This document shows positions 6,063-52,624 of a stretch of 64,000 nucleotides of DNA, piece after piece; the stretch's first letter is position 1, and every line of letters begins with the position of its first letter. The DNA lies in contig JAUVZB010000001.1 in NCBI GenBank assembly GCA_030602785.1, positions 63,843-127,842 on the forward strand, written 5' to 3'. The notes below the pieces were generated by a model. That model was not told where the DNA came from. It searched no databases and worked only from the letters and a program-made list of their open reading frames with translations. The position numbers and the translations under genes were made by a program. This stretch comes from Dehalococcoidia bacterium (lineage in GTDB: Bacteria; Chloroflexota; Dehalococcoidia; GIF9; AB-539-J10).

Positions 6063-6092
6063 TTGCAGGCCACGTACGGAGTATGGTACATT
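6063..6092 (+). promoter_or_regulatory. candidate promoter for rpsB-tsf-frr: -35 TTGCAG, 18-bp spacer, extended -10 TGgTACATT
   Basis: Read directly from the sequence, 60 nt upstream of the rpsB ATG. Confidence 0.4.
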
Positions 6093-6151
6093 AGCCAAGT
6101 TTCGCGGCTATTGAATCGTTCGAATCAGGAGAGCAACAGGACAAACGAGGC

Positions 6152-20702: not shown

Positions 20703-20775
20703 TGGGCAGTACTGGACTTGAACCAGTGACCTCTGCGATGTCAACGCAGCGCTCTAACCACTGAGCTAACCGCCC
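20703..20775 (-). tRNA. tRNA-Val (anticodon GAC)
   Basis: Reverse complement is GGGCGGTTAGCTCAGTGGTTAGAGCGCTGCGTTGACATCGCAGAGGTCACTGGTTCAAGTCCAGTACTGCCCA. All four stems pair, with anticodon loop TTGACAT. Confidence 0.9.
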
Positions 20776-20900
20776 TTGGTCGCGATTTTAGCAGAAGGCC
20801 GTAGCTACGTCAATCGTTGCGGACTCTGGATTCGTTCGTGGGCAGCCGCGCCGGCGTGGCGTGCTACCATAGGCCCGTCCCCTCGTGCGGGTTCAAGCTG

Positions 20901-21323
20901 ATGAGCAGGCAACCGTTTGAGATGGTCGCCCACACCGCGGACATCGGTGTCCGTATTCACGGCGGCGACATGGAGGAACTGCTTGTCAACGCGGCGCATG
21001 CCCTGTATTCCATCCTGTTACGCGCCACCAACCTGACGGAGCGAGTTGAGCGTGTCGTCACGGTAGACTCGCCCGATGAGGAGGCTCTGCTGGTCGACTG
21101 GCTCAACGAACTCATCTACCTGTTCGACGCCGAGCGGCTTGCCTTCTCGAGATTTCAAGTTGAGCAACTCACTGAGTGCCGTCTTCAGGCACGCTGCTTC
21201 GGTGAGCGCATTGGCAGCGCCCGGCACGAGGTGCTGCGTGAAGTCAAAGCCGCGACGTATCACATGGCACACATTCACCACGCGGCTGACGGTTACACGG
21301 CTCAAGTGATACTGGACGTATAG
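20901..21323 (+). CDS. archease (RtcB activator)
   Basis: 140 aa from the ATG at 20901: MSRQPFEMVAHTADIGVRIHG..., typical of the archease family. Immediately upstream of rtcB. Confidence 0.8.
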   Translation: MSRQPFEMVAHTADIGVRIHGGDMEELLVNAAHALYSILLRATNLTERVERVVTVDSPDEEALLVDWLNELIYLFDAERLAFSRFQVEQLTECRLQARCFGERIGSARHEVLREVKAATYHMAHIHHAADGYTAQVILDV

Positions 21324-21332
21324 GGGCGCACT

Positions 21333-22778
21333 ATGGCGGAACTCCGGAGACTGGATGAGCATCGGTGGGAAATACCGACGAGTTACAAACCTGGCATGCG
21401 TGTTCCCGGTCTCGTCTACGCAAGCGACTCGATGATCGAAAGCATCGAACGTGACCAGGCGCTTGAGCAGGTTGCCAACGTCGCATTCCTGCCGGGAATA
21501 GTGGGGCAGTCGATGGCGATGCCTGACATTCACTGGGGCTATGGCTTTCCTATCGGCGGAGTCGCGGCGACGACCGTCAAGGGAGGAGTAATCTCCCCCG
21601 GCGGTGTTGGCTACGACATCAACTGCGGAGTGAGGCTGCTGCGTAGCGACCTGACCGTTGCGGACGTTCTGCCCCGACTGTCACAGCTCCTGGAAAGGCT
21701 CTTCCACAACGTTCCCTCGGGAGTCGGCTCAAGGGGCAGAATGAAGCCTTCACAGCGGGATATCTCGCGCATCCTGGTTGAAGGCGCAGCCTGGGCAGTG
21801 AAACAGGGCTTTGGCAGCCGGGACGACCTTGCCGCGACCGAGGACGGTGGATGCATCTCCGGAGCCGATCCTTCAGCTGTGAGCGAACGCGCGCTGACGC
21901 GCGGCCTGCCGCAGGTTGGAAGTCTGGGTTCCGGTAATCACTTCCTTGAGATACAGGTTGTCCGCGATATCTTCGAGCCGGAGACCGCCTCCGCGATGGG
22001 CATAGAAAGGGAAGGACAGGTCCTCGTACTCATTCACACGGGCTCGCGCGGCTTTGGCCACCAGGTGTGCACTGACCATCTCCGGGTCATGGAGCGGGCG
22101 GTATCCCGCTATGGCATAGTCCTGCCTGACCGGCAACTGGCCTGTGCGCCAATCACATCGACTGAAGGCCGGCAATACCTGGCCGCCATGCGCTGTGCAG
22201 CAAACTATGCGTGGTGCAATAGACAGTGCATTGCACACTGGGTAAGAGAGTCATTCGCGGAGGTATTCGGCATCTCACAGGAGAGGCTCGCGCTGCGCCA
22301 GGTGTACGACGTTGCGCACAACATCGCGAAGATAGAGAGGCATTCGGTCGAGGGAAGAGAGACGGAGGTCTGCGTCCATCGGAAGGGGGCAACCCGGGCC
22401 TTTCCCGCAGGGCATCCCGCGCTGAGTGAGCGATACCGGACAGTCGGGCACCCGGTCCTGATTCCGGGCGACATGGGGCGGTCCTCATACATTGCGGTCG
22501 GGACAGAACTCGCCATGCGAGGCACGTTTGGCTCTACCTGCCACGGCGCGGGACGGCTCATGAGCCGCAGCGCCGCTCGCAGGGCTATCCGGGGACAGGA
22601 CGTGGCTGACGCCCTGCGACGCCGGTCCATCTCAGTCCGCACTGCCGATGTGGCGGCACTGGCGGAAGAGGCCTCTCAAGCCTACAAAGACATCTCGGAC
22701 GTCATGGATGTGGTCCAGGGAGCGGGGATCTGCAGGCGGGTGGCTCGAGCCGAGCCCCTGGGCGTTATCAAGGGCTGA
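21333..22778 (+). CDS. rtcB: RNA-splicing ligase RtcB
   Basis: 481 aa with the metal/GTP motifs MPDIHWGYGFPIGG, GYDINCG and HNHAG-like regions. Confidence 0.9.
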   Translation: MAELRRLDEHRWEIPTSYKPGMRVPGLVYASDSMIESIERDQALEQVANVAFLPGIVGQSMAMPDIHWGYGFPIGGVAATTVKGGVISPGGVGYDINCGVRLLRSDLTVADVLPRLSQLLERLFHNVPSGVGSRGRMKPSQRDISRILVEGAAWAVKQGFGSRDDLAATEDGGCISGADPSAVSERALTRGLPQVGSLGSGNHFLEIQVVRDIFEPETASAMGIEREGQVLVLIHTGSRGFGHQVCTDHLRVMERAVSRYGIVLPDRQLACAPITSTEGRQYLAAMRCAANYAWCNRQCIAHWVRESFAEVFGISQERLALRQVYDVAHNIAKIERHSVEGRETEVCVHRKGATRAFPAGHPALSERYRTVGHPVLIPGDMGRSSYIAVGTELAMRGTFGSTCHGAGRLMSRSAARRAIRGQDVADALRRRSISVRTADVAALAEEASQAYKDISDVMDVVQGAGICRRVARAEPLGVIKG

Positions 22779-36219: not shown

Positions 36220-37554
36220 CTAGACCATCTGATTGGGCAGCCAGGTGATGATCTGCGGAAACGCGATGCAAAGGGCCAGCCCTATCACAATCATGGTGAT
36301 GAATGGAATGACCCCCTTCATGATGTGATGCGTCTCGATACCAAGTTCGGGAGGAGCTGCCGCCTTCACAAAGAAAATCGCGTAGGCGAACGGAGGAGTG
36401 AGGAACGACATCTGCAGGTTAATACAGATCATCATTCCGAACCACAGCGGATCGAATCCCGCGGCCACCGCAATCGGTGTGATGATGGGCACCATTATGA
36501 ACACGATACCGATCCAATCGATGAACATGCCCAGGATGAAGCAGAGGAACATCACCAGTGCAAATGAACCCCACATACCACCCGGCGCCGCCAGGAGGAA
36601 TTCCTCAATAACCGCGCCACAGTGGGCCCGGATGAACACACCTACAAACGCGGACGCCAGCGAGGCAATCAGCAGAATCATGCCGCTCAGCTTGATGGTC
36701 TCGAACGCGGTGTCCATCAGCGCGCGGATTGTGAGCTTGCGGTAGGCGACCGCGAGAAGGACAGAAGCCAGCGCACCGACGCCTGCGGCCTCAGTGGGGG
36801 CGGCAATGCCGAAGAAGATGCTCCCAAGGACCGCAAGGATGATGGCCAGTGGGGGAACGAGTGACTTCAGCAACATCGCCGTCTTCTTGCCCAGCGGAAC
36901 ATTGCGCTCCTCGATACTGACAGGCGGGCCAGCGTTGGGCCGGATGATGCAGTACACGATGACAAAGGCACAGTAGAGCCCCGCCAGCACGAACCCCGGA
37001 ATGAAGGCCCCGAAGAACAGCTTGCCGACGCTCAGGTTTGCCATCGGTCCGTACACGACAAGCATGATGCTTGGGGGAATGAGGATGCCGAGCGTGCCTC
37101 CGGCACACACGACACCTGTCGCGAGGGACTTGTCATAGCCCCTCTTGATCATAGCCGGCAGACCGATGAGCGCCAGCATTGTTGTCGATGCAGCGATGAC
37201 GCCGACACAGGCCGCCATCAGCGTTCCGATGAGCACGGTGGTAATAGCCAGCCCGCCTCGCAATCCTCCGAACCAGAGGTACAGGGCGTCATACAACCCC
37301 TCGGCCACTCCCGACTTCTCCATCATTGTGCCCATGAATACGAAGAAGGGGACCGCCAGGAGAATGTAGTTGGTCAGCTGATTGAAGACCCGGTTGTAGT
37401 AGAGCTCAGAGACTATCTTGCCTCCAAACAGCAGGAAGCCGACAATTACCCCAACTGCACCAACGGAAACCGCGAGCGGATAGCCGAGAAGCACGCCGAC
37501 CAACACGCCACCAAGAAGGAGAATCGTTACAAGTTCCGGGCTCATGTCAATCAA
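36220..37554 (-). CDS. dctM: TRAP transporter large permease (copy 2)
   Basis: Paralog of 32742-34073. Start set at TTG 37554 (MIDMSPELV, compared with MIDLSPGLV in copy 1), which reproduces the 8-nt overlap with dctQ. Confidence 0.85.
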   Translation of the reverse strand: MIDMSPELVTILLLGGVLVGVLLGYPLAVSVGAVGVIVGFLLFGGKIVSELYYNRVFNQLTNYILLAVPFFVFMGTMMEKSGVAEGLYDALYLWFGGLRGGLAITTVLIGTLMAACVGVIAASTTMLALIGLPAMIKRGYDKSLATGVVCAGGTLGILIPPSIMLVVYGPMANLSVGKLFFGAFIPGFVLAGLYCAFVIVYCIIRPNAGPPVSIEERNVPLGKKTAMLLKSLVPPLAIILAVLGSIFFGIAAPTEAAGVGALASVLLAVAYRKLTIRALMDTAFETIKLSGMILLIASLASAFVGVFIRAHCGAVIEEFLLAAPGGMWGSFALVMFLCFILGMFIDWIGIVFIMVPIITPIAVAAGFDPLWFGMMICINLQMSFLTPPFAYAIFFVKAAAPPELGIETHHIMKGVIPFITMIVIGLALCIAFPQIITWLPNQMV

Positions 37555-38056
37555 AGCGCTCACCTCTTGCCAAGAAGTACAGGTCGCGCCAGAGTTGCGC
37601 AACACCCTGCAACAGAAGCAGCAGGATGCCGATGAATATCGCCGTCCTCATCGGCGCGAGGGGAGGATACCAGTACGTGATGACCGACTTCTCGCCGATG
37701 GCCCACGCGTGAACCATCCAGGAACCTGAGCTGTACGTGAGCACACCTATCACAGGTAAGAACAGCGCGAAGAAGCAAGCCACGTCGACGATTGCCCTAC
37801 CCCTCTCCGAAAACCGATTGTAGAGGACGTCCACGCGAACGTGACCCTTGCGCAACAGCACAAAGCCCCATGAGAGCGTGTACATCGCTGCCGCGAAGTG
37901 TATGGGCACCTCGAAGCCCCACATAGTAGGATGGTTGAACAAGTACCTCTGACCCACCTCGATACAGGTGAAAGAAATGGCGATCAAGAGGAACCAGCGC
38001 ATGCTGCGGCCCATCCATCCGTTCACGGAATCGACCAAGTGCACGAGTTTTTTCAC
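37547..38056 (-). CDS. dctQ: TRAP transporter small permease (copy 2)
   Basis: 169-aa paralog of 34066-34575. Confidence 0.8.
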   Translation of the reverse strand: MKKLVHLVDSVNGWMGRSMRWFLLIAISFTCIEVGQRYLFNHPTMWGFEVPIHFAAAMYTLSWGFVLLRKGHVRVDVLYNRFSERGRAIVDVACFFALFLPVIGVLTYSSGSWMVHAWAIGEKSVITYWYPPLAPMRTAIFIGILLLLLQGVAQLWRDLYFLARGERFD

Positions 38057-38148
38057 ATTAAGACACCTTACAGCCTCACTCCGGGCTTCCCAGCCCGGAG
38101 TGAGGCTCCATGAAGCACTAGTACCAGGTCAAAAACACAGCCGGGACA

Positions 38149-39267
38149 CTAGGGCTTGGCCCAGGTGCCTTGGATCTGCTCCTGGAAGCCGAAGTAGGAT
38201 GCCAGAATCTCGGCAGCGAACGGGTCATCGGCTGCCTTGTTCGCATAGAACTCCGCAGCAGCGACGCCGTACTCCTCCACTAAGGCATCCGGCAATCTGC
38301 GGACGTCCGTGCCGTAGTCACGGAAGTGATCGAGCGCTTCGAGGTCCAGTCTGAGGAGCTCGGAATACGCCCTGATGGTCTCCGCCTGGTTCACCTCGGA
38401 TACAATCACCTTGAGGTCGTCGGGAAGCTCGGCCCATCGGGCCGCGTTCACGATGAAGGGATTGTACTCATAGGGTTGTCGAGCTCCGGACAGCCACAGG
38501 TAGTCGCCAACTTCGTTGAGACCGAGGTCCCAGTTCAGCGTCGGGCTGGCGCACTCGAAGGCATCGATGACGCCACGGTGCATGGACTCGAAAATCTCGC
38601 CTGCGGGCATCATGACCGGGCCGGCACCGAGCATGCCAAGAATCTCCGCGCCGTCACCGGCGCCTCGAATCTTCAGACCCTTGAGGTCACCCGCCTTCTT
38701 CAGTTCCTTGTTGGTCTGCAGGAATATCTCAGGGGGGCCCATCCAACCACCATCGCGGACGATATGGACATCGTAGCCTGCAATCATCTCATCGGCGAAC
38801 TCAGCGCCGCCACCCTCGCGGAACCAGATCAACGCCTCCATCGGGGACATGCCGCCCGACACCATGGTCATCATTCCGGCCGTGGGGAACTTGTCCATCC
38901 AGTACATGTAGCAGGTCACGGCAAAGTCCAGCACGCCGGAGTCGACCGCGTCGAACTCCTTGGATGCAGGCGCAATACCACCACCGACCTCAACCACCAT
39001 CTTCAGGCGACCGCCGCTCGCAGCCTCAATCTGCTCCCCCACCCTCTTCAGTGAAGCATGCTGCTGCGTGATGCCGCCGGCATGGGACTGTCCCACCCAC
39101 TCAAAGACTTCCTCCGTGGGGGCAGCCGGGGCAGCCTCTTCCTCCTCCTCCTCAGGTGCTGGCGCTTCCTCTTCAGGAGCGGGCTCCGCTTCTGGAGCAC
39201 AGCCAACAATCAGCAAGCTGACTATCGCGAGCGCGCCAATCAGGGTCCAGACAGATTTCTTGCTCAC
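38149..39267 (-). CDS. dctP: TRAP transporter DctP-family substrate-binding lipoprotein (copy 2)
   Basis: Lipobox LLIVGC plus an APEAEPAPEEEAPAPEEEEEE linker, then a DctP fold. Confidence 0.85.
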   Translation of the reverse strand: MSKKSVWTLIGALAIVSLLIVGCAPEAEPAPEEEAPAPEEEEEEAAPAAPTEEVFEWVGQSHAGGITQQHASLKRVGEQIEAASGGRLKMVVEVGGGIAPASKEFDAVDSGVLDFAVTCYMYWMDKFPTAGMMTMVSGGMSPMEALIWFREGGGAEFADEMIAGYDVHIVRDGGWMGPPEIFLQTNKELKKAGDLKGLKIRGAGDGAEILGMLGAGPVMMPAGEIFESMHRGVIDAFECASPTLNWDLGLNEVGDYLWLSGARQPYEYNPFIVNAARWAELPDDLKVIVSEVNQAETIRAYSELLRLDLEALDHFRDYGTDVRRLPDALVEEYGVAAAEFYANKAADDPFAAEILASYFGFQEQIQGTWAKP

Positions 39268-39296
39268 CTTTCACCTCCTATTATGATTCGAAACAT

Positions 39297-39318
39297 ACGT
39301 GTGCTGGTCGAACACACG
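39297..39318. promoter_or_regulatory. inverted repeat ACGTGTGctggtcgaaCACACG in the TRAP-2 leader (candidate operator or leader hairpin)
   Basis: 6-7-bp perfect arms with a 9-nt spacer, between the predicted promoter and the dctP-2 start. The TRAP-1 leader has an analogous GGCGAAT...ATTCGCC repeat. Confidence 0.3.
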
Positions 39319-39367
39319 GGACAATTCCAAGAGGTCCGTCCCACAAATGCGACCTCCCCCGCAGGAG

Positions 39368-39397
39368 AGTATACGAATCGTCCAACGCGAAAGTCAA
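39368..39397 (-). promoter_or_regulatory. sigma70-like promoter for TRAP operon 2: -35 TTGACT, 18-bp spacer, -10 TATACT
   Basis: Read on the reverse complement. Parallels the TRAP-1 promoter. Confidence 0.4.
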
Positions 39398-39600
39398 TAC
39401 TGCGTATGAACGGCCTCATCGCTTTCCAAGACCGCCTGGACCACGAACGTCCCCGCCGACTGCTGAACTATCTCCCTCTGCCAGCCGAGGAGATTTCTTC
39501 CCCGTAGCGTTTCAGTCATGCCTGCTTCACTCATGGGTCGAACGGCAGTAACACCGCGAGTGGCGCTTTCACAGGCTCCTCACCAGTGAATCCGCATGCA

Positions 39601-40863
39601 CTACCCGTCCAGCAGTGGCAGGACAAGTGGTCCATCGGGGATGACGGCGATCTCGGCATCATCGCCCAATCGCCGCAGGGCCATGGCAACCGCCTCATCC
39701 ATGTCATGGACCGGCTCAAGCTGCATGCTGCGAACCAGTTCGTCATCAAGCTCCGAAAGCAGCATCACCTGGTTCCGAAGCTGGATGCGAGCCAGTACCT
39801 GGTTCTGCCACTGGACACCGATGGGCTCCTCTCTGCGTATTCTCTGCAGGACATCAATCGGGCCTGTGCATGACTGGTGCAATTCCAGGAACGACTCCGG
39901 ACCGGCGCCGCTGGAGCAGGAAGAAGCCGCGATAACGATGCCGCCGTCTCGCGTCACGAGGGACGCAGTGTCCATGCCCTTGACCGTCTGGTACAGATCA
40001 AGATCGAGAGGCGCGCCGCTATTCGTCGTGATGGCGATGTCTACCCTGTGTTTGACCTTTGCACCTACGACGCCGCGCGCGGCTTCGCAGCCTGCCTCGT
40101 GTGCCGTAACCATGTCCCCTGCGAATACGTTGGTGATTTCCTTCTTGTCATTGAGGAGAACAGTGACGACGAAATCGAGGCCTGCCATCCTGGCCTGCTC
40201 AACCATGTCCTCATGAATGGGGTTTCCCTGCAATACACCCGCACGTGCACGGGGGTGCTCAATCATGCGGTAGCCGTGGTTCACATAGGCCGACTTCAGG
40301 CCGAATACGCCCGGAGCGATGCTCTTGCGGCCGCCGGAGAACCCTGCGAAGAAGTGAGGTTCTATGAACCCCGTGGACAGCCGGAAATCAGCCTCTACCA
40401 CTAGCGGGTTGATGTCTACCGGCGCGCCACGGGAAGTTACGCCGATGTTCACCACTTTCGAGGGGTCATGGTTGACAACCCGGTACTGTGTCACGATGTC
40501 ATCGCCGAGGAGGCGACGCAGTTCTTCCTCTCCGAGAGGGGGATGAAGGCCGAGCGCCACGATGATGGTGATCTGCTCTTTCGGAACAACGCGCTCCAGT
40601 TCCTGCAGAATCGGTGGCAGCAGCCGGTCGTCGGGGCAGGCGCGGGTGTTGTCCGTCACTATGACGACCACGTTGTCCTGCGGCTGCACCGCATCGGCAA
40701 GAGGCTTCTGGCCGAGGGGGTTGCGCAGAGCATCACGCACTGCGCCGGCCTCGTCGTCGATGCCGGCCACGTGATGGGGCTCGAGCACAAACGCAACATT
40801 GCGCTCGGGTACCCTCACCCTCACGGTCGATGAGCCGTACGGCAGCTCAAACTCGACATGCAT
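39601..40863 (-). CDS. larA: LarA-family nickel-pincer-cofactor (NPN)-dependent 2-hydroxyacid racemase/epimerase homolog
   Basis: 420 aa with a DUF2088-type N-terminus. EPHFFAGFSGGRKSIAPG contains the conserved Lys that tethers NPN in lactate racemase. Substrate unknown. Confidence 0.75.
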   Translation of the reverse strand: MHVEFELPYGSSTVRVRVPERNVAFVLEPHHVAGIDDEAGAVRDALRNPLGQKPLADAVQPQDNVVVIVTDNTRACPDDRLLPPILQELERVVPKEQITIIVALGLHPPLGEEELRRLLGDDIVTQYRVVNHDPSKVVNIGVTSRGAPVDINPLVVEADFRLSTGFIEPHFFAGFSGGRKSIAPGVFGLKSAYVNHGYRMIEHPRARAGVLQGNPIHEDMVEQARMAGLDFVVTVLLNDKKEITNVFAGDMVTAHEAGCEAARGVVGAKVKHRVDIAITTNSGAPLDLDLYQTVKGMDTASLVTRDGGIVIAASSCSSGAGPESFLELHQSCTGPIDVLQRIRREEPIGVQWQNQVLARIQLRNQVMLLSELDDELVRSMQLEPVHDMDEAVAMALRRLGDDAEIAVIPDGPLVLPLLDG

Positions 40864-40869
40864 AGAACG

Positions 40870-42240
40870 TCACCTGATTGCCGAGCCGGGATTCAGTATG
40901 TTGTTGGGGTCAAACACCTTCTTGATGCCCCTCATGAGTTCCTCGGACTTGGGGTCCATCATGAGGTCCAGATACTGCAGGCGAATCTTGCCGACACCGT
41001 GCTCTCCCGTAATGACGCCGCCCAGCGCAATAGCTGCCTCGTAGATCTCCTTCTTCACGGCCTCCGCTGTCCCACGCTCGATGAGTTCTTTCAGCATGTA
41101 CGGGTGGAAATTGCCATCCCCCGCATGTGCGATAGTCATGATCTTGGTGTCGTACTTGTCCGCAATCGCGTCGAGCGCGTCCAGCATCCTTCCCAGGCTG
41201 GCCGGTGGCACGGTGACGTCCGAGTCGCCCGCGATTCGAGGTTTCATGGCGGAGTAGATCTCACTGCGGATCTTGAGAATCTCGGCCTGCTCTTCGCGTC
41301 TCTCAGCAATGACCACGTCGATGGCGCCGTGCTCCTGGCACACGTCGGATATCTTCTCGCACTGGAAGTAGATATCGTCTTCGTTAGAGCCGGAGAGAAC
41401 CAGGAGCAGGTGTGAGGAGCCCTTCTCAGCCAGCCACTTCATGCCGAGATTCTCGGCAGAGAGAAGAATGACGTCATGGTCGACGTACTCAATGGCCATC
41501 GGAATGACGCCGCTCTGCAATATCTTGGGCACCGTATTGATGGCGGCGTGCCTGTCGTCATAGGAGACCACGAGAGTCGCCGTCCCCGCGAACTTGGGAT
41601 AGAGGCGCATCACGGCTTTCGTGATGATTCCTAGTATGCCTTCGCTATCGATGAGGAGGTGCATGAGGTCGAGACCCGTGTTGTTCTTCAGCAGCTTGCC
41701 ACCCATCGTCACTATCTCACCCGTCGGCATGACGACTTCGAGCCCCTTCACGTAATTGCGGACGACGCCGTACTTGACCGCCCGGGTTCCGCCGGCGTTG
41801 CACGCAATCATCCCGCCTACCTGTGCGCCCTCGTCACCCGGGTGCGGCGGAAACAGCAGATTGGCATCTTCCACAGCGGCGAGCAGGTCGCCCAGCGTCA
41901 CTCCGGCCTGCGCTGTGACCATCAGGTTCTCCTTGTCTACCTCCTCGACCTTGTCGAAGCGCTCCATGGAGAGGACTATGCCGTCCTGCGTCGGCATTGC
42001 GCCGCAGCAAAGGCCCGTGCCCGCACCACGTGGGTAGACCGGTGTCTTGTCGCGGTTCGCCAGCTTGAGGATTTCCGATATCTCCTGGGCCGTGCCTGGC
42101 TTCACTACCACAACGTGCTCGGCCGGGGTAAGCCGCTGATACGGTGTCGTCTCGTCGTACAGGTAGGTCTCCATCTGCTCGCGTTCGGTGACAACCCAGT
42201 CAGCACCAACTATTGCCCTCAGTCCTTCAACGTCAGTCAT
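40870..42240 (-). CDS. FAD-linked oxidase, GlcD/D-lactate dehydrogenase family (paralog 1)
   Basis: 456 aa. FAD-binding PCMH domain (VVVKPGTAQEISEILKLA...PRGAGTG) and C-terminal ...GEHGVGKIR.... Confidence 0.85.
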   Translation of the reverse strand: MTDVEGLRAIVGADWVVTEREQMETYLYDETTPYQRLTPAEHVVVVKPGTAQEISEILKLANRDKTPVYPRGAGTGLCCGAMPTQDGIVLSMERFDKVEEVDKENLMVTAQAGVTLGDLLAAVEDANLLFPPHPGDEGAQVGGMIACNAGGTRAVKYGVVRNYVKGLEVVMPTGEIVTMGGKLLKNNTGLDLMHLLIDSEGILGIITKAVMRLYPKFAGTATLVVSYDDRHAAINTVPKILQSGVIPMAIEYVDHDVILLSAENLGMKWLAEKGSSHLLLVLSGSNEDDIYFQCEKISDVCQEHGAIDVVIAERREEQAEILKIRSEIYSAMKPRIAGDSDVTVPPASLGRMLDALDAIADKYDTKIMTIAHAGDGNFHPYMLKELIERGTAEAVKKEIYEAAIALGGVITGEHGVGKIRLQYLDLMMDPKSEELMRGIKKVFDPNNILNPGSAIR

Positions 42241-42303
42241 GGTTCTTTGCTCCTCCTCGCTCGTTTGCTTGTCGACTCTTCGCCCTTGCGGCCGGCTCGG
42301 CTG

Positions 42304-43674
42304 TCACTTGATGGCAGAGTCCGGACTCAGCACGTTGTTCGGGTCAAACAGGTGCTTCAATCCTCGCATCAGGTCAAGGGATTTCGCATCGAGGCACATC
42401 TCGAGTTCCTGTAGCTTCGTTTTCCCGATGCCGTGTTCGCCGCTGATGACACCACCCATCTCCACTGCCCTGGCGTAGATTCTCCGCTTCACTTCTTTCT
42501 CGACCCCCCTCTCCTTCAGCTCGAGCATGAGATGTGGGTGAAAGTTGCCGTCGCCGGCATGGGCAACCATGGGTATCTTGGTGTCGTACTCCGCGCCCAG
42601 CCGGTCAATCTCATCCATCAGGTCACCGATAGCCGCGGGAGGCACCGTCACATCCAGAATCTCAGCGGTCCGCGCCTTGTACGTCATGCTCGTCTCGCTC
42701 CTGACGTGCAGGATGTGGGCCTGTTCCTCCCTGCTTTCGGCCATCAGGGTGTCGACAGAGCCGTTCTTCTCACAAATCTCCGAGATCTTCTCGCACTGCT
42801 CGTAAACATCGTCTTCGTTAGTTCCAGTCACGATGATGATGAGATGCGCAACGCCTTTCGTAGCCGGCCATGTCGTGCCGAGGTAGCTGGCTGTGGCCTC
42901 CATGAGGTCATGGTCCACGTATTCCACCGCCATCGGGATTACTCCGCTCTGCAGTATCTTCGGCACACTGCGCATAGCGGCATGACGGTCATCGAATGAA
43001 ATCACGAGCGTCGCGGGGCCCGCAAACTTCGGATACAGACGCAGTATAGCCTTGGTGATGATACCAAGTATGCCCTCGCTGTCGATAATCAGCTGCATGA
43101 GGTCAAGCCCCGTGTTGTTCTTCAGCAGTTTCCCGCCCATGGTGACGATTTCGCCAGTGGGAAGTAGAACTTCCAGCCCCTTCACATAGTTGCGCACAAC
43201 TCCATACTTCACAGCCCTGGTGCCTCCAGCATTGCAGGCGATAAGACCTCCGACCTGGGCGCCCTCGTCACCGGGATGTGGCGGGAAGAGCAGTTCCGCC
43301 GATTCGACAGACTGCAGCAGTTGCGACAGCGTGACGCCGGCCTGCACGACCGCCATCAGGTTCTCCTTGTCGATCTCCTCTACCTTGTCCAGGCGTTCCA
43401 TTGACAGAACGACGCCGTCGCGTGTCGGTATGGCGCCGGCGCAGACTCCGGTGCCGCCACCGCGAGGATACACGGGGAAGCCTTCCTCGTTTGCCAGCCG
43501 CATTACCTGCGAGATCTCCTGCGCATTCGCCGGTTTCACGACAACTACGTTGTCTGCCGGCGTCATGATGAGGCCTGTGTATGTCTCGTCAATCAGGTAA
43601 CTCTCCATCTGCTGGCGATCCGTGACAACCCAGTCCTCCCCCACTATTGACTTCAGCTTCGATATGTCGAACAT
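42304..43674 (-). CDS. FAD-linked oxidase, GlcD/D-lactate dehydrogenase family (paralog 2)
   Basis: 456 aa, roughly 75% identical to paralog 1 by eye. Confidence 0.85.
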   Translation of the reverse strand: MFDISKLKSIVGEDWVVTDRQQMESYLIDETYTGLIMTPADNVVVVKPANAQEISQVMRLANEEGFPVYPRGGGTGVCAGAIPTRDGVVLSMERLDKVEEIDKENLMAVVQAGVTLSQLLQSVESAELLFPPHPGDEGAQVGGLIACNAGGTRAVKYGVVRNYVKGLEVLLPTGEIVTMGGKLLKNNTGLDLMQLIIDSEGILGIITKAILRLYPKFAGPATLVISFDDRHAAMRSVPKILQSGVIPMAVEYVDHDLMEATASYLGTTWPATKGVAHLIIIVTGTNEDDVYEQCEKISEICEKNGSVDTLMAESREEQAHILHVRSETSMTYKARTAEILDVTVPPAAIGDLMDEIDRLGAEYDTKIPMVAHAGDGNFHPHLMLELKERGVEKEVKRRIYARAVEMGGVISGEHGIGKTKLQELEMCLDAKSLDLMRGLKHLFDPNNVLSPDSAIK

Positions 43675-43701
43675 GTGGTCAGATCACTCCTTGCGGCCCT
43701 C

Positions 43702-44859
43702 TCAGATAGTCGGCCCAACTGTGTAGATGTTACAGTTGACGCCCGACCCGTCGTAGTCAAGTATCTCTGCCTTCACTTCTTCACCCGAGAACACCTGCAG
43801 AACGCTCTCATACACGCGCCTCCCTGCGTCCTCCACGGTCTCACTGCCTGTGATTATGCCGCTCACATCGATGTCGATGTATTCGGCAAGGCGCGTGCAG
43901 GTGAGTTCATTTCCAGATATCTTGATCACGGGGCTGAGTGGGAAACCCTGTGGGGCGCCGATTCCAGTTGAGAACAACATCACCTGGCAGCCCACTGAAG
44001 CCAGTCCTGTCAGGAATTCCATCTCGCGACCCGGCGAGTCCATGAAGTATAGACCCTGTCCACCGGGCCGCTCTCCGTATTTTACGACACCGTCTATGGG
44101 CAGTGTCCCCGACTTTACTATCGCTCCCAGAGACTTCTCTTCGATAGTGGTCAGCCCGCCTCTGATATTTCCTTCGGTAGGCTGTCCACCGCGCATGTCT
44201 ACACCCATTGCGTTGACACGATGCTCCATAGCTGTCACACATCCCAGCAATTTGTCGGCCACCTCAGGGCTTGACGCCCTCTTGACGAGGATGTGCTCTG
44301 CGCCAATGACCTCCGTGGTCTCCCCGAAGACAACCATCGCGCCGGCACGAACAAGCATATCAACCGCGGCGCCGGCTGCGGTATTGGAGGCCAGGCCGGA
44401 GGTGGTGTCAGAGGCGCCGCACTTGACGCCGACAATGAGGTCCGACAGCGATATTTCACACCGCTCAGCCTGCACCGTTTTCGCGAGCCGCCTTGCAGCC
44501 TCAATCCCGCTTTCTACAGCTACGGTGATGCCACCCATTGCCTGAACGCGGATAAGCTCCACAGGCTTGTCCTGCCGCTCGACGGCCACAATCTCGTCCG
44601 CGTTGACCGACTCGCAACCGAGGCTGACCAGCACAACTGCCGCGACGTTCGGATTGCGGCACAATCCGATGAGAACGTCCGTCACTATCCTCACATCCGT
44701 CGGCAACTGGCAGCATCCCTGATGGTGCAGCATCGGCCGTGCACCGTCTACCGCAGCCCCTATCCTGCGAGCCACCTCATTCACGCAGCCCACGGTGGGC
44801 ACAATCGCGACGTAGTTCCTGGCCCCCGCAGGGCCCTTCTGTCTGCTGTATCCTTGCAT
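43702..44859 (-). CDS. UxaA-family (altronate/galactarate dehydratase C-terminal domain) dehydratase with no N-terminal SAF domain
   Basis: 385 aa, with multiple conserved Cys/Gly blocks of the GD_AH_C type (GCCQLP, SLGCE, KCGASDTTSG). Confidence 0.65.
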   Translation of the reverse strand: MQGYSRQKGPAGARNYVAIVPTVGCVNEVARRIGAAVDGARPMLHHQGCCQLPTDVRIVTDVLIGLCRNPNVAAVVLVSLGCESVNADEIVAVERQDKPVELIRVQAMGGITVAVESGIEAARRLAKTVQAERCEISLSDLIVGVKCGASDTTSGLASNTAAGAAVDMLVRAGAMVVFGETTEVIGAEHILVKRASSPEVADKLLGCVTAMEHRVNAMGVDMRGGQPTEGNIRGGLTTIEEKSLGAIVKSGTLPIDGVVKYGERPGGQGLYFMDSPGREMEFLTGLASVGCQVMLFSTGIGAPQGFPLSPVIKISGNELTCTRLAEYIDIDVSGIITGSETVEDAGRRVYESVLQVFSGEEVKAEILDYDGSGVNCNIYTVGPTI

Positions 44860-44902
44860 CCCCCTCTGTACCTCCTTATCCCAGATTTCTCCGCCGCGCC
44901 GG

Positions 44903-46258
44903 CTATGGCAGTGCAGTGCCCGGATTCAGGATGTCGTTCGGGTCGAACAGCTTCCTGATGCCCTGCATGAGCTCGAGCGATTTGTCGTCAAGGCAGAGCG
45001 GGAGTTCTGCTTTCCTGATCTTGCCCACGCCGTGCTCCGCCGTGATAGTTCCACCCATTCTGGCCGCCTCTACGTATATGTCGTGTTTCACGTCATTGAG
45101 CACGCCTCGCTCATAGAGTTCCAATGGAATGTGCGGATGTATGTTTCCGTCACCTGCATGGCCGTAGGTGATGATGCGTGTCTGGTACTTCTGAGAAATG
45201 TCATCCAGTACGTCGAGGAAATTCGCGATTTCGGCCGGAGGTACGGCCATATCCAGGACGTCGGCCACCTGCGGCTTCAGCGCCGGATAGAGCTCGCTTC
45301 GAATCTTGAGGATGTTCGCCTGCTCCTCTCGCGTGTCGGCCATAAGGGTGTCTACCGCGTTGAGCCCCTCGCATACCTTGATTACGGTAGCCGCCTGAGA
45401 ATAGACATCGTCCTCATTGCTGCCGGTCACGATGACAATCAGATGCGCCATACCCTTCTCCGCAGGCCAACGCTTTCCGAGATGGTCCGCCGAAATCTGA
45501 ATCACATCGCGCTCAACATACTCCAGCGCGAGCGGGATGACACCCGTCTGCAGTATTTTCGGGACGGCCTTGATGGCGGAATGCCTGTCGTCGAACGACA
45601 CTATCAGGGTGGCCGACGCCGCGAAACACGGGTAGAGCCTGAAGATGACCTTCGTTACGATGCCAAGTATGCCCTCGCTGTCAATCATCAGATGCATCAG
45701 GTCGAGCCCGGTATTGTTTTTGAGGAGCTTGCCCCCCATTGTCACTATCTCACCCGTCGGCATGACGACTTCGAGCCCTTTCACGTAGTTGCGCACCACG
45801 CCGTACTTCACCGCGCGCGTGCCGCCGGCGTTGCAGACGACCAGTCCGCCGAGTTGCGCACCCTCATCGCCAGGATGGGGAGGAAAGAGCAGGTCAGCCT
45901 CCTCGACTTCCTTCAACATCTTCTCGAGCGTCGCGCCTGCTTCGGCCACCACCATGAGGTTCTCCTTGTCGACCTCGATAATCCTGTCGAGTCGTTCCAT
46001 CGAGAGAACGATGCCGGGAATAGTAGGCACCGCACCACCGACACAGCCTGTGCCCCCCCTGGGAAACACCGGGATTCGGTGCTCGTTCGCTAGTCTCAGT
46101 ACGCTGGAAATCTCTCAGGGGTTGGCCGGTTTCACAACCACGACATCGGAAGCGGGTTTCGGCCGAACCGGAAGGGCGGTCACATCCGTCAGGTAGCTCT
46201 CCATGAGCGCCAGGTCGGTCAGCACCCAATCCTCGCCGACGATTTCCTTCAGGTTCAT
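44903..46258 (-). pseudogene. GlcD-like FAD oxidase paralog 3, interrupted by an in-frame TGA at 46117..46115
   Basis: My translation from the ATG at 46258: MNLKEIVGEDWVLTDLALMESYLTDVTALPVRPKPASDVVVVKPANP*EISSVLRLANEHRIPVFPRGGTGC... The TGA sits exactly where paralogs 1 and 2 have Gln (KPANAQEIS). The downstream 388-aa frame (ORF track 44903-46069) is intact and conserved. Confidence 0.6.
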
Positions 46259-46847
46259 TACCAGTTCGTTCTGCATCTTGCCTCCCGATTGTAGTTTACA
46301 CGCGGCGCAACGCTATTCCGCGGCGCGGACTGATTGCAGGATGGTGCCGGGGGCCTGTGATGTGTGGGGCACTCTCGGGGAGCGCACCTGACCGAGAGGG
46401 CGCGTGTAGCAACTGCGATTGGCTGCTCACCCAGCAGAGCCAGGCCGCTGACCGGCGACGCGGGGCCGCAAATCGCTCGACGCCTACGCAGTGGCCTGCT
46501 GGGTGTCGGTTTCCAGTATCTCACTCCATCATTGCCCGATACGTGGCGAACCTGCATAACGCGGCAACCCCCCAAGGCCAACCTTTCGTCGGGAGCAACG
46601 ACCACCGTGTCCCTGAAGCATCAGTAACGCTGTCGCGGCAAGGCGCCCTGAGCCGGACGACCTCTTGCGAAACTGAGTCAAATCATGCCAAACCGGCAGC
46701 ACGGCAGGCAACAAAGCCGAACAATTGTACACGTTGCCGGGCGCACACGGTAGTCTCCTGTGAGACAGCCGGTGACCCGCCAGGATTGCCCTCAGATGTT
46801 CTTGACGCTTCGAAAGGGGCGATGCTAAGCTAGCCGCAACCTTCGAT

Positions 46848-48527
46848 TTGCGACAATTTATGGATACTGACGCCAGGACCCACCGTGTTTCTACCAGCGA
46901 TGATGTCGAGGTATCCACATATCTTGGCATCGCCCAGGCATTGCAGGGTGAAGAGCCAATCCCCCAGGATACGACTCCCCTGAGTGGGCGCGAAGCAATC
47001 GTCATACTCGACTTCGGATCGCAGTACAGCATGCTGATAGCACGCCGTATCCGCGAGTGCCACGTATACTGCGAAGTGTTGCCACACGACACGCCGTGGG
47101 AAAAGATCGAGCCTTTGAACCCCCGTGGATTCATTCTATCCGGTGGTCCCGCCAGCGTGTACTCGCAGGACGCGCCGCTGCCGCCAACCTATGTCTATGA
47201 AAAGCATCTTCCGGTTCTCGGCATCTGCTACGGGATGCAGGCCATTGCACATCAGCTCGGCGGGCAGGTCTCTCCCGGAGAGAACCACGAGTACGGGCAT
47301 GCCGTGCTCCATCTCGATGCGGGGGACTCGCCACTGTTCTCAGGACTTCCACCGTCGGGCCCGGTGTGGATGAGTCACGGTGATGTTGTGAGCGAACTGC
47401 CTCCCGGCTTCCGGGCACTCGCATATACGGAGAATTCGCCGCTCGCCGTTATCGGAAACACCGACGACATCTACGGACTGCAGTTCCATCCCGAGGTGAC
47501 ACACACACCACAGGGACGGCAAATCATCGAGAACTTCGCGTACAAAGTGTGCGGCTGCAGCGGCAATTGGACGCCTGCCCGGTTCATCAATGAGAGCGTC
47601 GACCGTATCCGCGAACAGGTGAAGGACGGCAAGGTCGTCTGCGCCCTGTCAGGTGGTGTCGACTCGGCTGTCACCGCAATGCTCATCCACCGGGCGATAG
47701 GCGACAATCTCACCTGTATCTTCATCAACAACGGACTGCTGCGCAGAGAAGAACCCGAGCGGGTTCTCAATACCTTCCACAACAATCTGAATGTCCGGGT
47801 GATTTTTGTCGACGCCACCGACCGATTCCTGCGCGGGCTAAGCGGGGTTGTCGACCCGGAGCAGAAGCGTCGCATCATCGGTGAGGAGTTCATTCACGTA
47901 TTCGAGGAGGAGGCCGACAAACTCGGCGCAGTGGACTTCCTTGCACAGGGCACGGTGTATCCGGACGTTATCGAGAGCAGCAGTTCCCCTGAACACGAGG
48001 CTTCAGCCCGAATCAAGAGCCACCACAACGTGGGTGGATTGCCGGCCCTGATGAAGCTGAACCTCGTTGAGCCGCTGAGATACCTCTTCAAGGATGAAGT
48101 TCGCGAGGTCGGTCTGGGTCTCGGGTTGCCCGAAGAAATGGTGTGGCGTCAACCCTTCCCCGGGCCTGGTCTGTCTATTCGTGTGATAGGCGAGGTGACG
48201 AAAGAACGTCTCGATATTCTCCGTTCGGCAGACTGGATCGTCATGAACGAGGTGAAGAATGCCAATCTCTATGGACAGCTGTGGCAGAGTTTTGCTGTCC
48301 TGACGGATGTCAGAAGCGTGGGAGTCATGGGCGACTTCAGAACTTACGGATACCTCATCGCGGTGCGTGCTGTGAACAGCACGGACGCGATGACTGCTGA
48401 TTGGGCGCGTTTGCCCTACGAGTTGCTCGACAGGATCTCGCACCGCATCGTCAACGAAGTTCCACACGTGAACAGGGTCGTCTACGACATCACCAGCAAA
48501 CCCCCCTCAACCATCGAATGGGAGTGA
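46848..48527 (+). CDS. guaA: GMP synthase (glutamine-hydrolysing)
   Basis: GATase domain ([28 protein letters not shown]), ATP-PPase SGGVDS motif and a C-terminal dimerisation domain. The true start may be downstream of 46848. Confidence 0.9.
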
Positions 48528-48633
48528 GCGGTCAGGTCGGGTGTGTGAACCAATCTCAATGCAAACCGTTCGGCTTCCCATTTCTACGCTCCGGGATTAC
48601 CATGCAGTCCCCTGCTGATAGGAGCATCAACCC

Positions 48634-49899
48634 GTGAAGATACTGGTGGTCGGCGGCGGAGGCCGAGAGCACGCACTCGTCTGGAAACTGGCGCAGAGCA
48701 ACCGCGTGGAACAGCTGTTCGCGGCACCAGGGAACGCGGGCACCGCACGACTCGTCGAGAACATCCCGCTTGCCGCTACGGACATCGACGGGCTCGTGAA
48801 AGCAGCAACGACAAGGAAGTGCGACCTGGTTGTCGTTGGCCCCGAGGTTCCTCTGGCGATGGGGGCGATAGACAGTCTCCATGAGGCAGGGATTCCTGCC
48901 TTCGGCCCCTCTCGCGCGGCGGCGCGGCTCGAAGCAAGCAAGACGTTCGCCCATGAAATCATGAAGAAATGCAACGTGCCGGCTGCGGAGTTTCGCTCTT
49001 TCGACTCTTTCGTTGAGGCACGCGACTATGTGGCTCAACTCAGCTTCCCGGTTGTGGTGAAGGCAGACGGACTGGCTGCGGGCAAAGGGGCGATTGTGGT
49101 GGAGTCGTTTGCCGAGGCGGAGACCGCGCTGCGGGACATGATGGAGCGCCGTGTCTTCGGAGAGGCAGGCGACAGGGTGGTCATCGAGGAGTTCCTTGAA
49201 GGCAGGGAGGTCAGCCTGCTCGCGTTCACGGACGGCGTGAACGTGGCCCCCATGGTTCCCGTCTGCGATTGCAAGAGAGCTTTCGACAACGACGAAGGAC
49301 CGAACACGGGAGGCATGGGCTGTTACAGTCCCCCCTGTTTCTTCGACAGCGGTCTCGTACGAGAGGCGACGGACACCGTGCTGCTGCCCGTGGTCCGCGC
49401 CATGGCGGATGAGGGTTGGGACTACCGGGGAGTGATATACGCAGGCTTGATGGTGAGTGAGAAAGGCATCCGCGTGCTCGAATTCAATGTGCGTTTTGGA
49501 GACCCCGAGACGCAGGTGATAGTGCCGAGACTCGAGAGTGACCTGGCGGAGATACTCCTCAGCTGTGTTGAGGGCAGACTTGAGCCCGCAGCCATCCGGT
49601 GGACGGACCGTTGCAGCGTAGGTGTCGTTCTGGCCTCCGGGGGCTACCCGGGCCCCTACCGGGACGGTGTCCCGATATCCGGTCTTGACAGCAATGACGC
49701 AGATGTCGCCCTGTTTCATGCAGGCACCGCACTGAACGACAATCTTGGCACGGTGACACATGGTGGGCGAGTGCTGGCAGTGGTTGCGACAGGAGACGGC
49801 ATAGCCGACGCGCGGAACCGTGTTTACCGCAATGTGGCCCGTGTATCCTTCCCGGGTATGATGTATCGTAGTGATATCGCCTTGAGAGAGGTTGCGTAG
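48634..49899 (+). CDS. purD: phosphoribosylamine--glycine ligase
   Basis: MKILVVGGGGREHALVWKLAQS. Confidence 0.9.
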   Translation: MKILVVGGGGREHALVWKLAQSNRVEQLFAAPGNAGTARLVENIPLAATDIDGLVKAATTRKCDLVVVGPEVPLAMGAIDSLHEAGIPAFGPSRAAARLEASKTFAHEIMKKCNVPAAEFRSFDSFVEARDYVAQLSFPVVVKADGLAAGKGAIVVESFAEAETALRDMMERRVFGEAGDRVVIEEFLEGREVSLLAFTDGVNVAPMVPVCDCKRAFDNDEGPNTGGMGCYSPPCFFDSGLVREATDTVLLPVVRAMADEGWDYRGVIYAGLMVSEKGIRVLEFNVRFGDPETQVIVPRLESDLAEILLSCVEGRLEPAAIRWTDRCSVGVVLASGGYPGPYRDGVPISGLDSNDADVALFHAGTALNDNLGTVTHGGRVLAVVATGDGIADARNRVYRNVARVSFPGMMYRSDIALREVA

Positions 49900-50361
49900 A
49901 TGGAGCCGATGATAGGAATCGTCATAGGAAGCGTGAACGACAAGGAACTCGTGGCCCCCGCCTTGCAGGTGCTCGAAGATTTCGGGGTGAAGCACGAGGT
50001 CTCCGTTATCTCAGCGCACCGCACTGCCGAGAAGGCACGCTCATACGCCCAGGCGGCCGAGGAGCGTGGCGTTGAAGTGCTGATAGCCGCCGCGGGCTAC
50101 GCGGCGCATCTTCCGGGTGTGCTTGCGAGCTGGAGCGCGCTGCCGGTTATCGGAGTTCCGCTGCCCACCAGCGAACTAAAGGGAATCGATTCCCTCCTCT
50201 CCATTGTGCAGATGCCGGGCGGTGTGCCTGTCGCCTGCACAGGCATAGGAAAGAGCGGCGCTAAGAACGCCGCGCTGATGGCCATCCAGATACTCGCGGT
50301 GCGCGATGAGCGCCTGCGGGCCGCGTATCGCACCTACAGAGACAACTTGGCTGCGCAGTGA
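49900..50361 (+). CDS. purE: N5-carboxyaminoimidazole ribonucleotide mutase
   Basis: 153 aa, IGIVIGSVNDKELV...AAGYAAHLPGVLA. Confidence 0.9.
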   Translation: MEPMIGIVIGSVNDKELVAPALQVLEDFGVKHEVSVISAHRTAEKARSYAQAAEERGVEVLIAAAGYAAHLPGVLASWSALPVIGVPLPTSELKGIDSLLSIVQMPGGVPVACTGIGKSGAKNAALMAIQILAVRDERLRAAYRTYRDNLAAQ

Positions 50362-50368
50362 GGTTTGC

Positions 50369-51715
50369 ATGATTGAACGCTATTCCCGACCTGAGATGAA
50401 GGGCATCTGGTCGGACGAAAACAAATTCGACCTCTGGGTGAAGGTCGAGGTAGCCGCATGCGAGGCGTGGACTGAGCTCGGCCGGATCCCGGCTGACGAC
50501 ATGGTCAGGATTCGACAGGCCACCGTCAATCTGGACAGACTTGCCGAGATTCTCCAGGTCACGCACCACGACATGACGGCCTTTCTCGGATCGGTGGCGG
50601 AGAGTCTCGGTCCGGAATCGCGCTACATCCACTTCGGCCTCACCTCTTCAGACGTGATGGACACGGCGCTCAGCCTGCAACTGAAGGCCGCCGCCGCTGT
50701 CCTGCAGCAGGGAGTGGATGACCTTACGCTGGCGCTGAGGTCGCGCGCAATTGAGCACAAGCACACCATCATGATGGGGCGGACTCATGGCATACACGCC
50801 GAGCCGGTTACCTTCGGACTGAAGTTGGCCCTTTGGACCAAAGAGATGGAGCGCAACTCCGCGCGTCTCAAGCGAGCAACTGAAGCCGTGGCTGTCGGGA
50901 AGATATCAGGCGCCGTAGGCACCCACGCAACGGTGCCTCTCGAGGTGGAAGAGAGCGCGTGTCACAGGCTCGGACTTGGAGTGGCCGAGATATCGAGTCA
51001 GATTGTGCAGCGTGACCGGCACGCGGAGTTCCTCTGCACGCTCGCCATCATCGCCGGTTCTCTGGAGAAGTTCGCAACAGAGGTAAGAGGACTGCAGCGA
51101 ACCGAGGTCGGGGAAGTCGAGGAGCCTTTCGAGCCCGGGCAGACTGGCTCGTCGGCCATGCCCCACAAGAGAAACCCGGAGCTCTGCGAGCGCGTCTGCG
51201 GCTTGGCACGCCTCATCCGGGCGAACGCCATGGTGTCGATGGAGAATATCTCATTGTGGCACGAGAGGGATATCAGCCACTCATCCACGGAGCGAATCAT
51301 CCTGCCGGATTCGTGCCTTGCGCTCGACTATATGCTCGCCATATTCACCTCGGTGGTCGCCGGACTGCGCGTCGACACCGAACGGATGCGGTCGAATCTC
51401 GACATGACGCGCGGGCTGGTGTTCTCACAGAGAGTTCTCATAGCTCTGATAGACAAGGGGATGAGTCGCCAGGAATCTTACGAGGTGATTCAGCGATGCG
51501 CCATGCGCGCATGGCAGGATGGACAGGACTTCCGGGAGCTCCTACAGGCGGACCCCCATGTTGCTGCCATTCTGGAGAAAAAGGACTTTGACCACTTGTT
51601 CGACTATTCATACTACCTGCGAGAAATTGACCGCATTTTCGAGCGTGCCGGAGTGACCGGCAAGGCCGGGGTGACCACCGCGAACACGGAGAAACTCGCC
51701 CCGCGCTCGTATTGA
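50369..51715 (+). CDS. purB: adenylosuccinate lyase
   Basis: MIERYSRPEMKGIWSDENKF...; fumarase/ASL signature region (GSSAMPHKRNP). ATG at 50369. Confidence 0.9.
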   Translation: MIERYSRPEMKGIWSDENKFDLWVKVEVAACEAWTELGRIPADDMVRIRQATVNLDRLAEILQVTHHDMTAFLGSVAESLGPESRYIHFGLTSSDVMDTALSLQLKAAAAVLQQGVDDLTLALRSRAIEHKHTIMMGRTHGIHAEPVTFGLKLALWTKEMERNSARLKRATEAVAVGKISGAVGTHATVPLEVEESACHRLGLGVAEISSQIVQRDRHAEFLCTLAIIAGSLEKFATEVRGLQRTEVGEVEEPFEPGQTGSSAMPHKRNPELCERVCGLARLIRANAMVSMENISLWHERDISHSSTERIILPDSCLALDYMLAIFTSVVAGLRVDTERMRSNLDMTRGLVFSQRVLIALIDKGMSRQESYEVIQRCAMRAWQDGQDFRELLQADPHVAAILEKKDFDHLFDYSYYLREIDRIFERAGVTGKAGVTTANTEKLAPRSY

Positions 51716-51727
51716 GGAGAGAGAACT

Positions 51728-52624
51728 ATGGACGCTGTGATTGAGACGTCTCTGCCGCTCGCCCTGTATCAACGTGGCAAGGTCAGGGATGTGTACGACG
51801 TCGGGGACGAATTGCTCATTGTGTCCACGGACCGAATCTCGGCTTTCGATTTCGTCCTGCCCTCCGGGGTACCGGAGAAAGGTAGGATCCTCAACCGGAT
51901 GTCGGCCTTCTGGTTCCGGAAAACATCGGACCTGCTGCCGAATCACCTGGTTGAGTCAATAGAGGACACCGAGGCACTCGAAAGGTTCGGCTCAAGGTTG
52001 GGACTGAAGGACCCTCTGCCGGATTGCCTTGTCGGGCGTTCGATGGTTGCCAGGAAGGCGAGCCGCATCTCGGTCGAGTGCGTCGTGCGCGGGTATCTCT
52101 CCGGCTCGGCATGGGCGGAGTACAAGGCTCGCGGGACCGTGAGCAGCCAGAAGATGCCTGCGGGGCTGCGAGAGAGCGAGCGATTGCCGGAACCGCTGTT
52201 CACACCCACAACAAAGAGCGAGGCGGAACACGACCGGCCGCTCACACAGCAGGATGTCTCAGACTTGCAGTTGGAGGAGACGATGCCTGTCCTGGAAACG
52301 GCGACTCGCGCCATTTACGAATACGCCGTGGACTACGCCTGGAGCCGCGGAATTATCATTGCTGATACCAAATTCGAATTCGGATGGATAGACGGACAGC
52401 TTGTGCTCATCGACGAGGCCCTGACGCCCGACTCCAGCCGCTTCTGGACGGCCAAAGACTACGTTGTCGGCAAGCCCCAGCCGAGCTATGACAAGCAACC
52501 GGTGAGGGACTGGCTGGCTGGCTCAGGATGGAATGGTCAGGCGCCCGTCCCGCCTATGCCGCCCGAGGTTGTCGAGGCGACCACGAAGCGATACATGACC
52601 ATCTACCAGTGGCTCGCGGAGTAG
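51728..52624 (+). CDS. purC: phosphoribosylaminoimidazole-succinocarboxamide synthase
   Basis: LYQRGKVRDVY...VSTDRISAFD. Confidence 0.9.
   Translation: MDAVIETSLPLALYQRGKVRDVYDVGDELLIVSTDRISAFDFVLPSGVPEKGRILNRMSAFWFRKTSDLLPNHLVESIEDTEALERFGSRLGLKDPLPDCLVGRSMVARKASRISVECVVRGYLSGSAWAEYKARGTVSSQKMPAGLRESERLPEPLFTPTTKSEAEHDRPLTQQDVSDLQLEETMPVLETATRAIYEYAVDYAWSRGIIIADTKFEFGWIDGQLVLIDEALTPDSSRFWTAKDYVVGKPQPSYDKQPVRDWLAGSGWNGQAPVPPMPPEVVEATTKRYMTIYQWLAE

Follow-up and report, generated by a model that had tools for sequence, protein, structure and literature searches.

The gene g3, the first of a conserved Dehalococcoidia operon, is probably a young, strain-specific null allele, a pseudogene at a nascent stage. 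It belongs to the GlcD/LctD-type FAD-dependent 2-hydroxyacid dehydrogenases and carries two lesions 57 nt apart, a premature in-frame TGA at codon 54 and a 3-nt in-frame deletion that removes one residue from the Gly-rich loop of the FAD-binding domain. Orthologues in the same genomic position have neither lesion, and contigs from a second assembly pipeline reproduce both exactly. Throughout, "the window" denotes the whole 64,000-nt stretch of DNA analysed.

Gene structure and domain content

The disrupted gene and its parts are the following:

44903–46276, minus strand: g3, the gene that opens the operon, disrupted, with 457 codons (TGA counted) for a GlcD/LctD-type FAD-dependent 2-hydroxyacid dehydrogenase (translation, Pfam, orthologues)
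46281–46286, minus strand: intact Shine-Dalgarno sequence GGGAGG, with the ATG 4 nt downstream (read in the sequence)
46115–46117, minus strand: premature in-frame TGA, codon 54 of g3 (read in the sequence; the same in Logan contig L033)
46052–46060, minus strand: 3-nt in-frame deletion in a GGN-GGN-GGN repeat (alignment to orthologues; missed by the first-pass annotation)
46115–46276, minus strand: N-terminal fragment ORF of 53 codons, product of the nonsense mutation (public collection entry P0137 and Logan SRR14872671)
44903–46069, minus strand: residual ORF of 388 codons with an internal GTG start at 46069 (P0131, 388 aa, in an NCBI-derived record)

The minus-strand frame runs from an ATG at 46276–46274 through 53 sense codons to the TGA at 46117–46115, and then through 403 sense codons to a TAG at 44905–44903. 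The first-pass annotation had described a single in-frame TGA in an otherwise intact frame, with both halves of the gene aligning to two paralogues, and both statements hold, the amino-acid identity to the paralogues being 62–63%. The extent it gave, 44903–46258, has the wrong start: the gene begins at the ATG at 46276, and orthologues begin MQNELV.

The 403 residues encoded after the stop match PF02913 (FAD-oxidase_C, 8.7e-53) and PF01565 (FAD_binding_4, 5e-30), the latter only from profile position 12 because the first strand is encoded 5' of the TGA. PF01565 followed by PF02913 is the order expected for the VAO/PCMH 2-hydroxyacid dehydrogenase subfamily (GlcD/LctD/LDHD/D2HGDH). Residues R326, H373, H380, E414, and H415 are present in g3, in columns that are invariant across a 35-sequence alignment, and they align to R347, H398, H405, E442, and H443 of mouse LDHD, which are catalytic and metal-binding residues of that enzyme (PMC10589216). 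The HAGDGNIH and AEHGVG motifs align as well. The uninterrupted coding sequence of a functional subfamily member is broken in g3 at codon 54; g3 is thus a member by descent that is disabled as a gene.

The next in-frame starts after the TGA are the GTG at 46069 that opens the residual 388-codon ORF and the ATG of "...SMERLD...". Neither is preceded by a Shine-Dalgarno motif, and both products would be without β1-α1 of the FAD-binding subdomain. In the public protein collection, P0137 (53 aa) and P0131 (388 aa) are called as separate genes on a 172,992-nt NCBI contig; these entries are two fragments of one gene.

Operon context and paralogues

Downstream of g3, the operon comprises:

43702–44859, minus strand: UxaA/GD_AH-like dehydratase large-subunit homologue, intact (Pfam PF04295 and PF20629; synteny)
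42304–43674, minus strand: g2, intact paralogue, 456 aa, ending in TGA (sequence, Pfam)
40870–42240, minus strand: g1, intact paralogue, 456 aa, ending in TGA (sequence, Pfam)
39601–40863, minus strand: LarA-like (lactate-racemase family) gene, intact (Pfam PF09861 and PF21113)
36220–39267, minus strand: TRAP transporter genes DctP, DctQ, and DctM, distal end of the operon (Pfam PF03480 and PF06808; synteny)

The order guaA, divergent g3, UxaA-like gene, g2, g1, LarA-like gene, and DctPQM is shared by at least 12 related loci, where g3 is intact. Each of g1, g2, and g3 forms its own orthologous group, and the three are co-conserved in at least 12 related genomes; g3 is therefore old and separately maintained rather than a recent redundant duplicate. 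The redundancy implied by the earlier phrase "pseudogene in a tandem array" does not fit paralogues that are ancient and share only ∼64% nucleotide identity. Separate conservation of all three suggests that they act as several enzymes of one 2-hydroxyacid pathway or as subunits of a hetero-oligomer.

The operon (36220–46276, minus strand) recurs across a Dehalococcoidia clade (L008–L015, L034–L050, and L080) and is always divergent from guaA-purD-purE. Its UxaA/GD_AH-like protein has no SAF N-terminal domain. Three other metagenome contigs of the operon show irregularities, namely an apparent frameshift in g3 of L060 (2–511 / 471–1343), an apparent frameshift in g2 of L036 (5451–5846 / 5842–6819), and a mosaic of g2-, g3-, and g1-like segments in L077 (2845–4186); these could reflect real decay, recombination, or sequencing errors.

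Relation to characterized homologues

The closest solved homologue of g3 is LctD (7QH2_C, E = 1.5e-88, residues 45–453), followed by 3PM9, glycolate oxidase (9QGZ), D-2-HGDH, and LDHD. LctD of Acetobacterium woodii (PDB 7QH2 chain C) is the FAD subunit of an electron-confurcating lactate dehydrogenase/Etf complex, and it shares with g3 the PF01565 and PF02913 domains and the HAGDGN and EHG(I/V)G motifs. Its Gly-rich loop reads RGsGTG, whereas that of g3 is one residue short and g3 itself is truncated at codon 54. EtfAB genes are also missing next to g3, whose partners are instead the UxaA-like homologue, the two paralogues, the LarA-like gene, and the TRAP transporter. For 9QGZ, 6LPN, and 8JDC the homology is at the family level, with the catalytic and metal residues of mouse LDHD conserved in g3.

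The g3 orthologous group is limited to a Dehalococcoidia clade, and archaeal relatives are ∼54% identical. Homologues at ∼53–55% identity occur in Bathyarchaeia, Nitrososphaeria, and Njordarchaeum MAGs (L022–L031, L054–L064), many of them with the FAD loop in a V-G-G-R-T-G form. Their occurrence hints that genes of this dehydrogenase group have been passed between domains.

The stop site in relatives

A protein search recovered 33 full-length g3 orthologues, nearly all of 458 aa and 72–91% identical, all from Dehalococcoidia/Chloroflexota MAGs. The closest g3 cluster (12 members) reaches 94% identity, with the same operon position for true orthologues. Among true orthologues (33 plus ∼12), the position of the stop is occupied by Ala, Gly, Glu, Asp, Gln, or Arg, and across 70 further bacterial and archaeal loci by E/Q/D/K/A/G/R/H/N/T; neither Cys nor a stop occurs there in any of ∼105 homologues (the 35-sequence alignment plus the 70 loci). 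The site, at which residues vary, opens the helix that follows β1 and is far from the catalytic residues. The first-pass annotation had taken the TGA to replace a conserved Gln; Gln is present in both paralogues, but the range of residues in orthologues shows that it is not conserved. The comparison with orthologues that it had proposed finds a sense codon at the site in every relative examined. In individual loci the codon is as follows:

L080, L001, and L034: GCA
L004: GGA
L006: GGG
L002: GAA

The nearest orthologues thus have GCA, GGA, or GGG, and GGA is one G>T transversion from TGA. No near-identical strain with a sense codon was found in the genome contigs scanned (best match 92%) or in metagenome contigs (best 91%), and the six proteins in which one step reverts codon 54 (to G/R/W/C/S/L) had no exact match in the public protein collection. 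By exact look-up, a protein identical to the UxaA-like neighbour occurs only in SRR14872671.

A shortened FAD-binding loop

At the second lesion, g3 reads AGG GGG GGC ACA where orthologues read AGG GGT GGC GGC ACC, so that one GGN unit is lost and a run of seven G is left at 46053–46059. The loop between β2 and β3 of the FAD-binding domain accordingly changes from R-G-G-G-T-G to R-G-G-T-G, one Gly short. All ∼105 homologues, as well as the PDB homologues, have the longer form (R/Q/V-G-x-G/N/R-T-G, six residues), and g3 is without this full-length loop of the subfamily; HMMER gaps g3 at the same place against the "RGsGTG" of LctD. Of the earlier statement on domain integrity, the lack of frameshifts and the retention of the C-terminal domain stand, and the claim that the whole FAD-binding domain is preserved does not.

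In the alignment, chain positions 78, 79, 81, and 85 of 6LPN are L, A, N, and G. An offset of 46 matches these to L124, A125, N127, and G131 of human D-2-HGDH, which identifies the second Gly of the loop as G131. The β2-β3 loop of D-2-HGDH directly takes part in FAD binding, and the G131V substitution, at the FAD-binding site, abolishes FAD binding and activity (<5%) (PMC7801405). By this analogy, the one-residue deletion in g3 is very likely damaging. A literature search for a description of a "PP loop" found none.

Reproducibility of the lesions

Both lesions were checked against Logan contigs, which come from a different assembly pipeline but probably from the same read set as the genome. 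Contig L033 (run SRR14872671), reached through an exact match to the 53-aa fragment, is 100% identical to window positions 45749–52276, including the TGA and the deletion, and contig L081 (same run) is 100% identical to 41716–45770. The lesions are in this sense reproducible, as expected of a real pseudogene, with the read set probably shared. Only run SRR14872671 carries this exact sequence.

The first-pass annotation had offered an assembly error in a repeated region as one explanation. Paralogue DNA is ∼64% identical overall and 50–60% identical around the TGA, which lies outside any repeat; the only long word common to paralogues measures 38 nt and lies 340 nt from the TGA region. With unique sequence at the site and an independent assembly that reproduces the TGA exactly, this explanation is rejected at the assembly level. 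L033 and L081 break exactly at the 38-nt word shared by g3 and g1 (45741–45778 = 41708–41745), where a k-mer assembler stops because the word is common to both genes, and the join that the window makes across it agrees with the gene order in all relatives. The other window genes checked, including rpsB, tsf, frr, archease, rtcB, hisD, guaA, and the TRAP genes, are intact, so errors do not pervade the assembly of the window. An assembler artefact is excluded, and a read-level error is unlikely.

Selection and age

Pairwise dN/dS between g3 and its orthologues is 0.06–0.09 (Nei-Gojobori). On the terminal branch leading to the window, a three-taxon comparison gives dN of 0.014–0.018, dS of 0.25–0.29, and omega of 0.05–0.07, equal to the omega of the sister branch L080 (0.05–0.07). 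Neither approach shows the rise in dN/dS by which relaxed constraint on a pseudogene is recognized. Nine positions are unique to the window's g3 relative to 12 close relatives, among them the stop, the deletion, and two gene-conversion residues.

The gene was thus under strong constraint until very recently. Neutral drift for even ∼5% of the branch would nearly double the nonsynonymous count, so the inactivation must be very recent. An unraised dN/dS is what is expected if inactivation occupies less than a few percent of a branch with dS of ∼0.25–0.36; it dates the event and does not refute a pseudogene. The term "very recent" in the first-pass annotation, for which a dN/dS test had been proposed there, agrees with this result, here obtained against orthologues.

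Alternative explanations

That the organism's real g3 is intact, and that the window records either an error in sequencing or consensus calling or a minority variant, not fixed, that was taken up into the consensus, is an unlikely reading. It draws on the metagenome-type nature of the assembly, on the confinement of the exact sequence to one run, and on the occasional frameshifts in other metagenome contigs of the operon (g3 in L060, g2 in L036). G>T changes are also a known oxidative-damage artefact. However, an error would have to account for two separate lesions, both 100% reproduced by an assembler that requires repeated k-mers, and a clean 3-nt deletion is atypical of short-read error. 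The region is moreover unique rather than repeated, and no other broken gene was found in the rest of the 64-kb window.

Only the bare in-frame TGA in an oxidoreductase gene speaks for selenocysteine insertion or for UGA reassigned as a sense codon; g3 does share an in-frame UGA in a redox enzyme gene with bacterial selenoprotein genes. It differs from them in having no homologue with Cys or Sec at the site, no SECIS, no Sec machinery seen, and no conservation of the UGA in relatives, at a position that is variable and remote from the catalytic residues. The 86 nt around and downstream of the UGA show no SECIS-like fold (z = −0.70; 44 of 200 shuffles fold as well), and Rfam gave no match on the gene strand, at the gathering threshold or even at E ≤ 10. 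ARAGORN and Rfam found no tRNA-Sec or suppressor tRNA in the 64-kb window, whose only tRNAs are tRNA-Arg(TCT) and tRNA-Val(GAC). TGA terminates 26 of the 51 long ORFs in the window, about half, among them g1, g2, the UxaA-like gene, guaA, and purE, and the C-termini of these five coincide with those of their orthologues; TGA is thus in regular use as a terminator here, as the first-pass annotation had held. Its view that selenocysteine is unlikely and that no SECIS-like hairpin is present is equally upheld. On the fold, Rfam, tRNA, and terminator evidence, selenocysteine and code reassignment are rejected, with a probability that we regard as practically negligible. A non-programmed alternative, low-level readthrough of CCC-UGA-G by a near-cognate tRNA (e.g. 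tRNA-Trp), would make g3 an attenuated rather than a null allele. Among bacterial stop codons UGA leaks the most, and in E. coli termination is weaker after a C-terminal Pro; here a Pro codon precedes the UGA, the position tolerates many residues, and the frame, ribosome-binding site, and catalytic residues are intact. Yet no stimulatory structure is found in the downstream fold or by Rfam, the window holds no suppressor tRNA, no relative has a stop at the site that would signal selection for readthrough, and the product would still have the shortened FAD loop. Readthrough of this kind is very unlikely, and it is highly improbable that the strain, helped by the Pro-UGA-G context, makes a little full-length enzyme in which the short loop is tolerated, with g3 acting as a naturally attenuated allele. 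The recoding and readthrough option of the first-pass annotation thus finds no support in the orthologues, in the folds, or in the presence of a second lesion.

A probable nascent pseudogene

In the reading of g3 as a null allele, the loss of function, the ancestral codon, and the order of the two mutations are inferred. One mutation would be a nonsense change at codon 54, for which a single G>T transversion from GGA to TGA is the simplest route, and the other a slippage-type loss of one GGN unit, taking a glycine from the FAD-contacting β2-β3 loop. Translation from the intact start and ribosome-binding site would end after 53 residues; the 403 codons beyond the TGA lack a ribosome-binding site, and no functional enzyme is therefore expected. 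That two independent lesions lie within 60 nt of each other, in a gene that every relative has kept intact, speaks for a lapse of selection on g3 in this lineage. Several features point the other way, in that the catalytic residues, ribosome-binding site, and start codon are intact, and since there is also neither a frameshift nor relaxed selection, the case for loss of function is carried by the two lesions. A very recent nonsense mutation, the first option of the first-pass annotation, is accordingly the one supported, by a pair of reproducible lesions found in none of the relatives.

In these respects g3 resembles ordinary young "unitary" nonsense pseudogenes, which combine a disabling point mutation and a small indel in an orthologue-like gene with intact neighbours and no signature of relaxed selection as yet; nothing sets g3 apart from them. 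Pseudogenes by nonsense mutation are an already known phenomenon, and g3 is ordinary gene decay, not recoding. The fitting annotation is pseudogene, or disrupted FAD-binding oxidoreductase; a label of selenoprotein or recoding candidate would be misplaced. Its interest lies in showing a conserved operon gene in which decay has only just set in, with two lesions and no signal of relaxed selection yet.

Gene conversion between paralogues

One further feature of g3 involves its paralogue g1:

45741–45793, minus strand: short g1-to-g3 gene-conversion tract, containing the 38-nt exact repeat (45741–45778 = 41708–41745)

Over ∼50 nt, g3 is 97% identical to g1, compared with 77–83% to g3 orthologues, and elsewhere its identity to g1 is ∼64%. 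The tract gives g3 the paralogue-type residues N163 and M172, where orthologues have Q and L. At this locus, 38 nt of conversion between ancient paralogues suffice to break up assemblies built on de Bruijn graphs.

Other features of the window

A stop-free stretch of 425 codons lies antisense to g3 (44816–46093, plus strand) and resembles a typical high-GC shadow ORF. Between g3 and guaA, an ORF of 158 aa (46357–46833, plus strand) has no Pfam match on record; L006 has it in the equivalent place, 61% conserved, and the Logan contig carries it as a called gene. This hypothetical protein may regulate the divergent operons. The LarA-like gene and dctP are separated by a non-coding gap of ∼330 nt (39268–39600; ∼300 nt in L010), in which an internal promoter or other regulatory element of the operon may lie.

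Elsewhere in the window, archease and RtcB RNA-ligase genes, a known activator-ligase pair, are adjacent (20817–22778, plus strand) and lie beside tRNA-Val(GAC) at 20703–20775.
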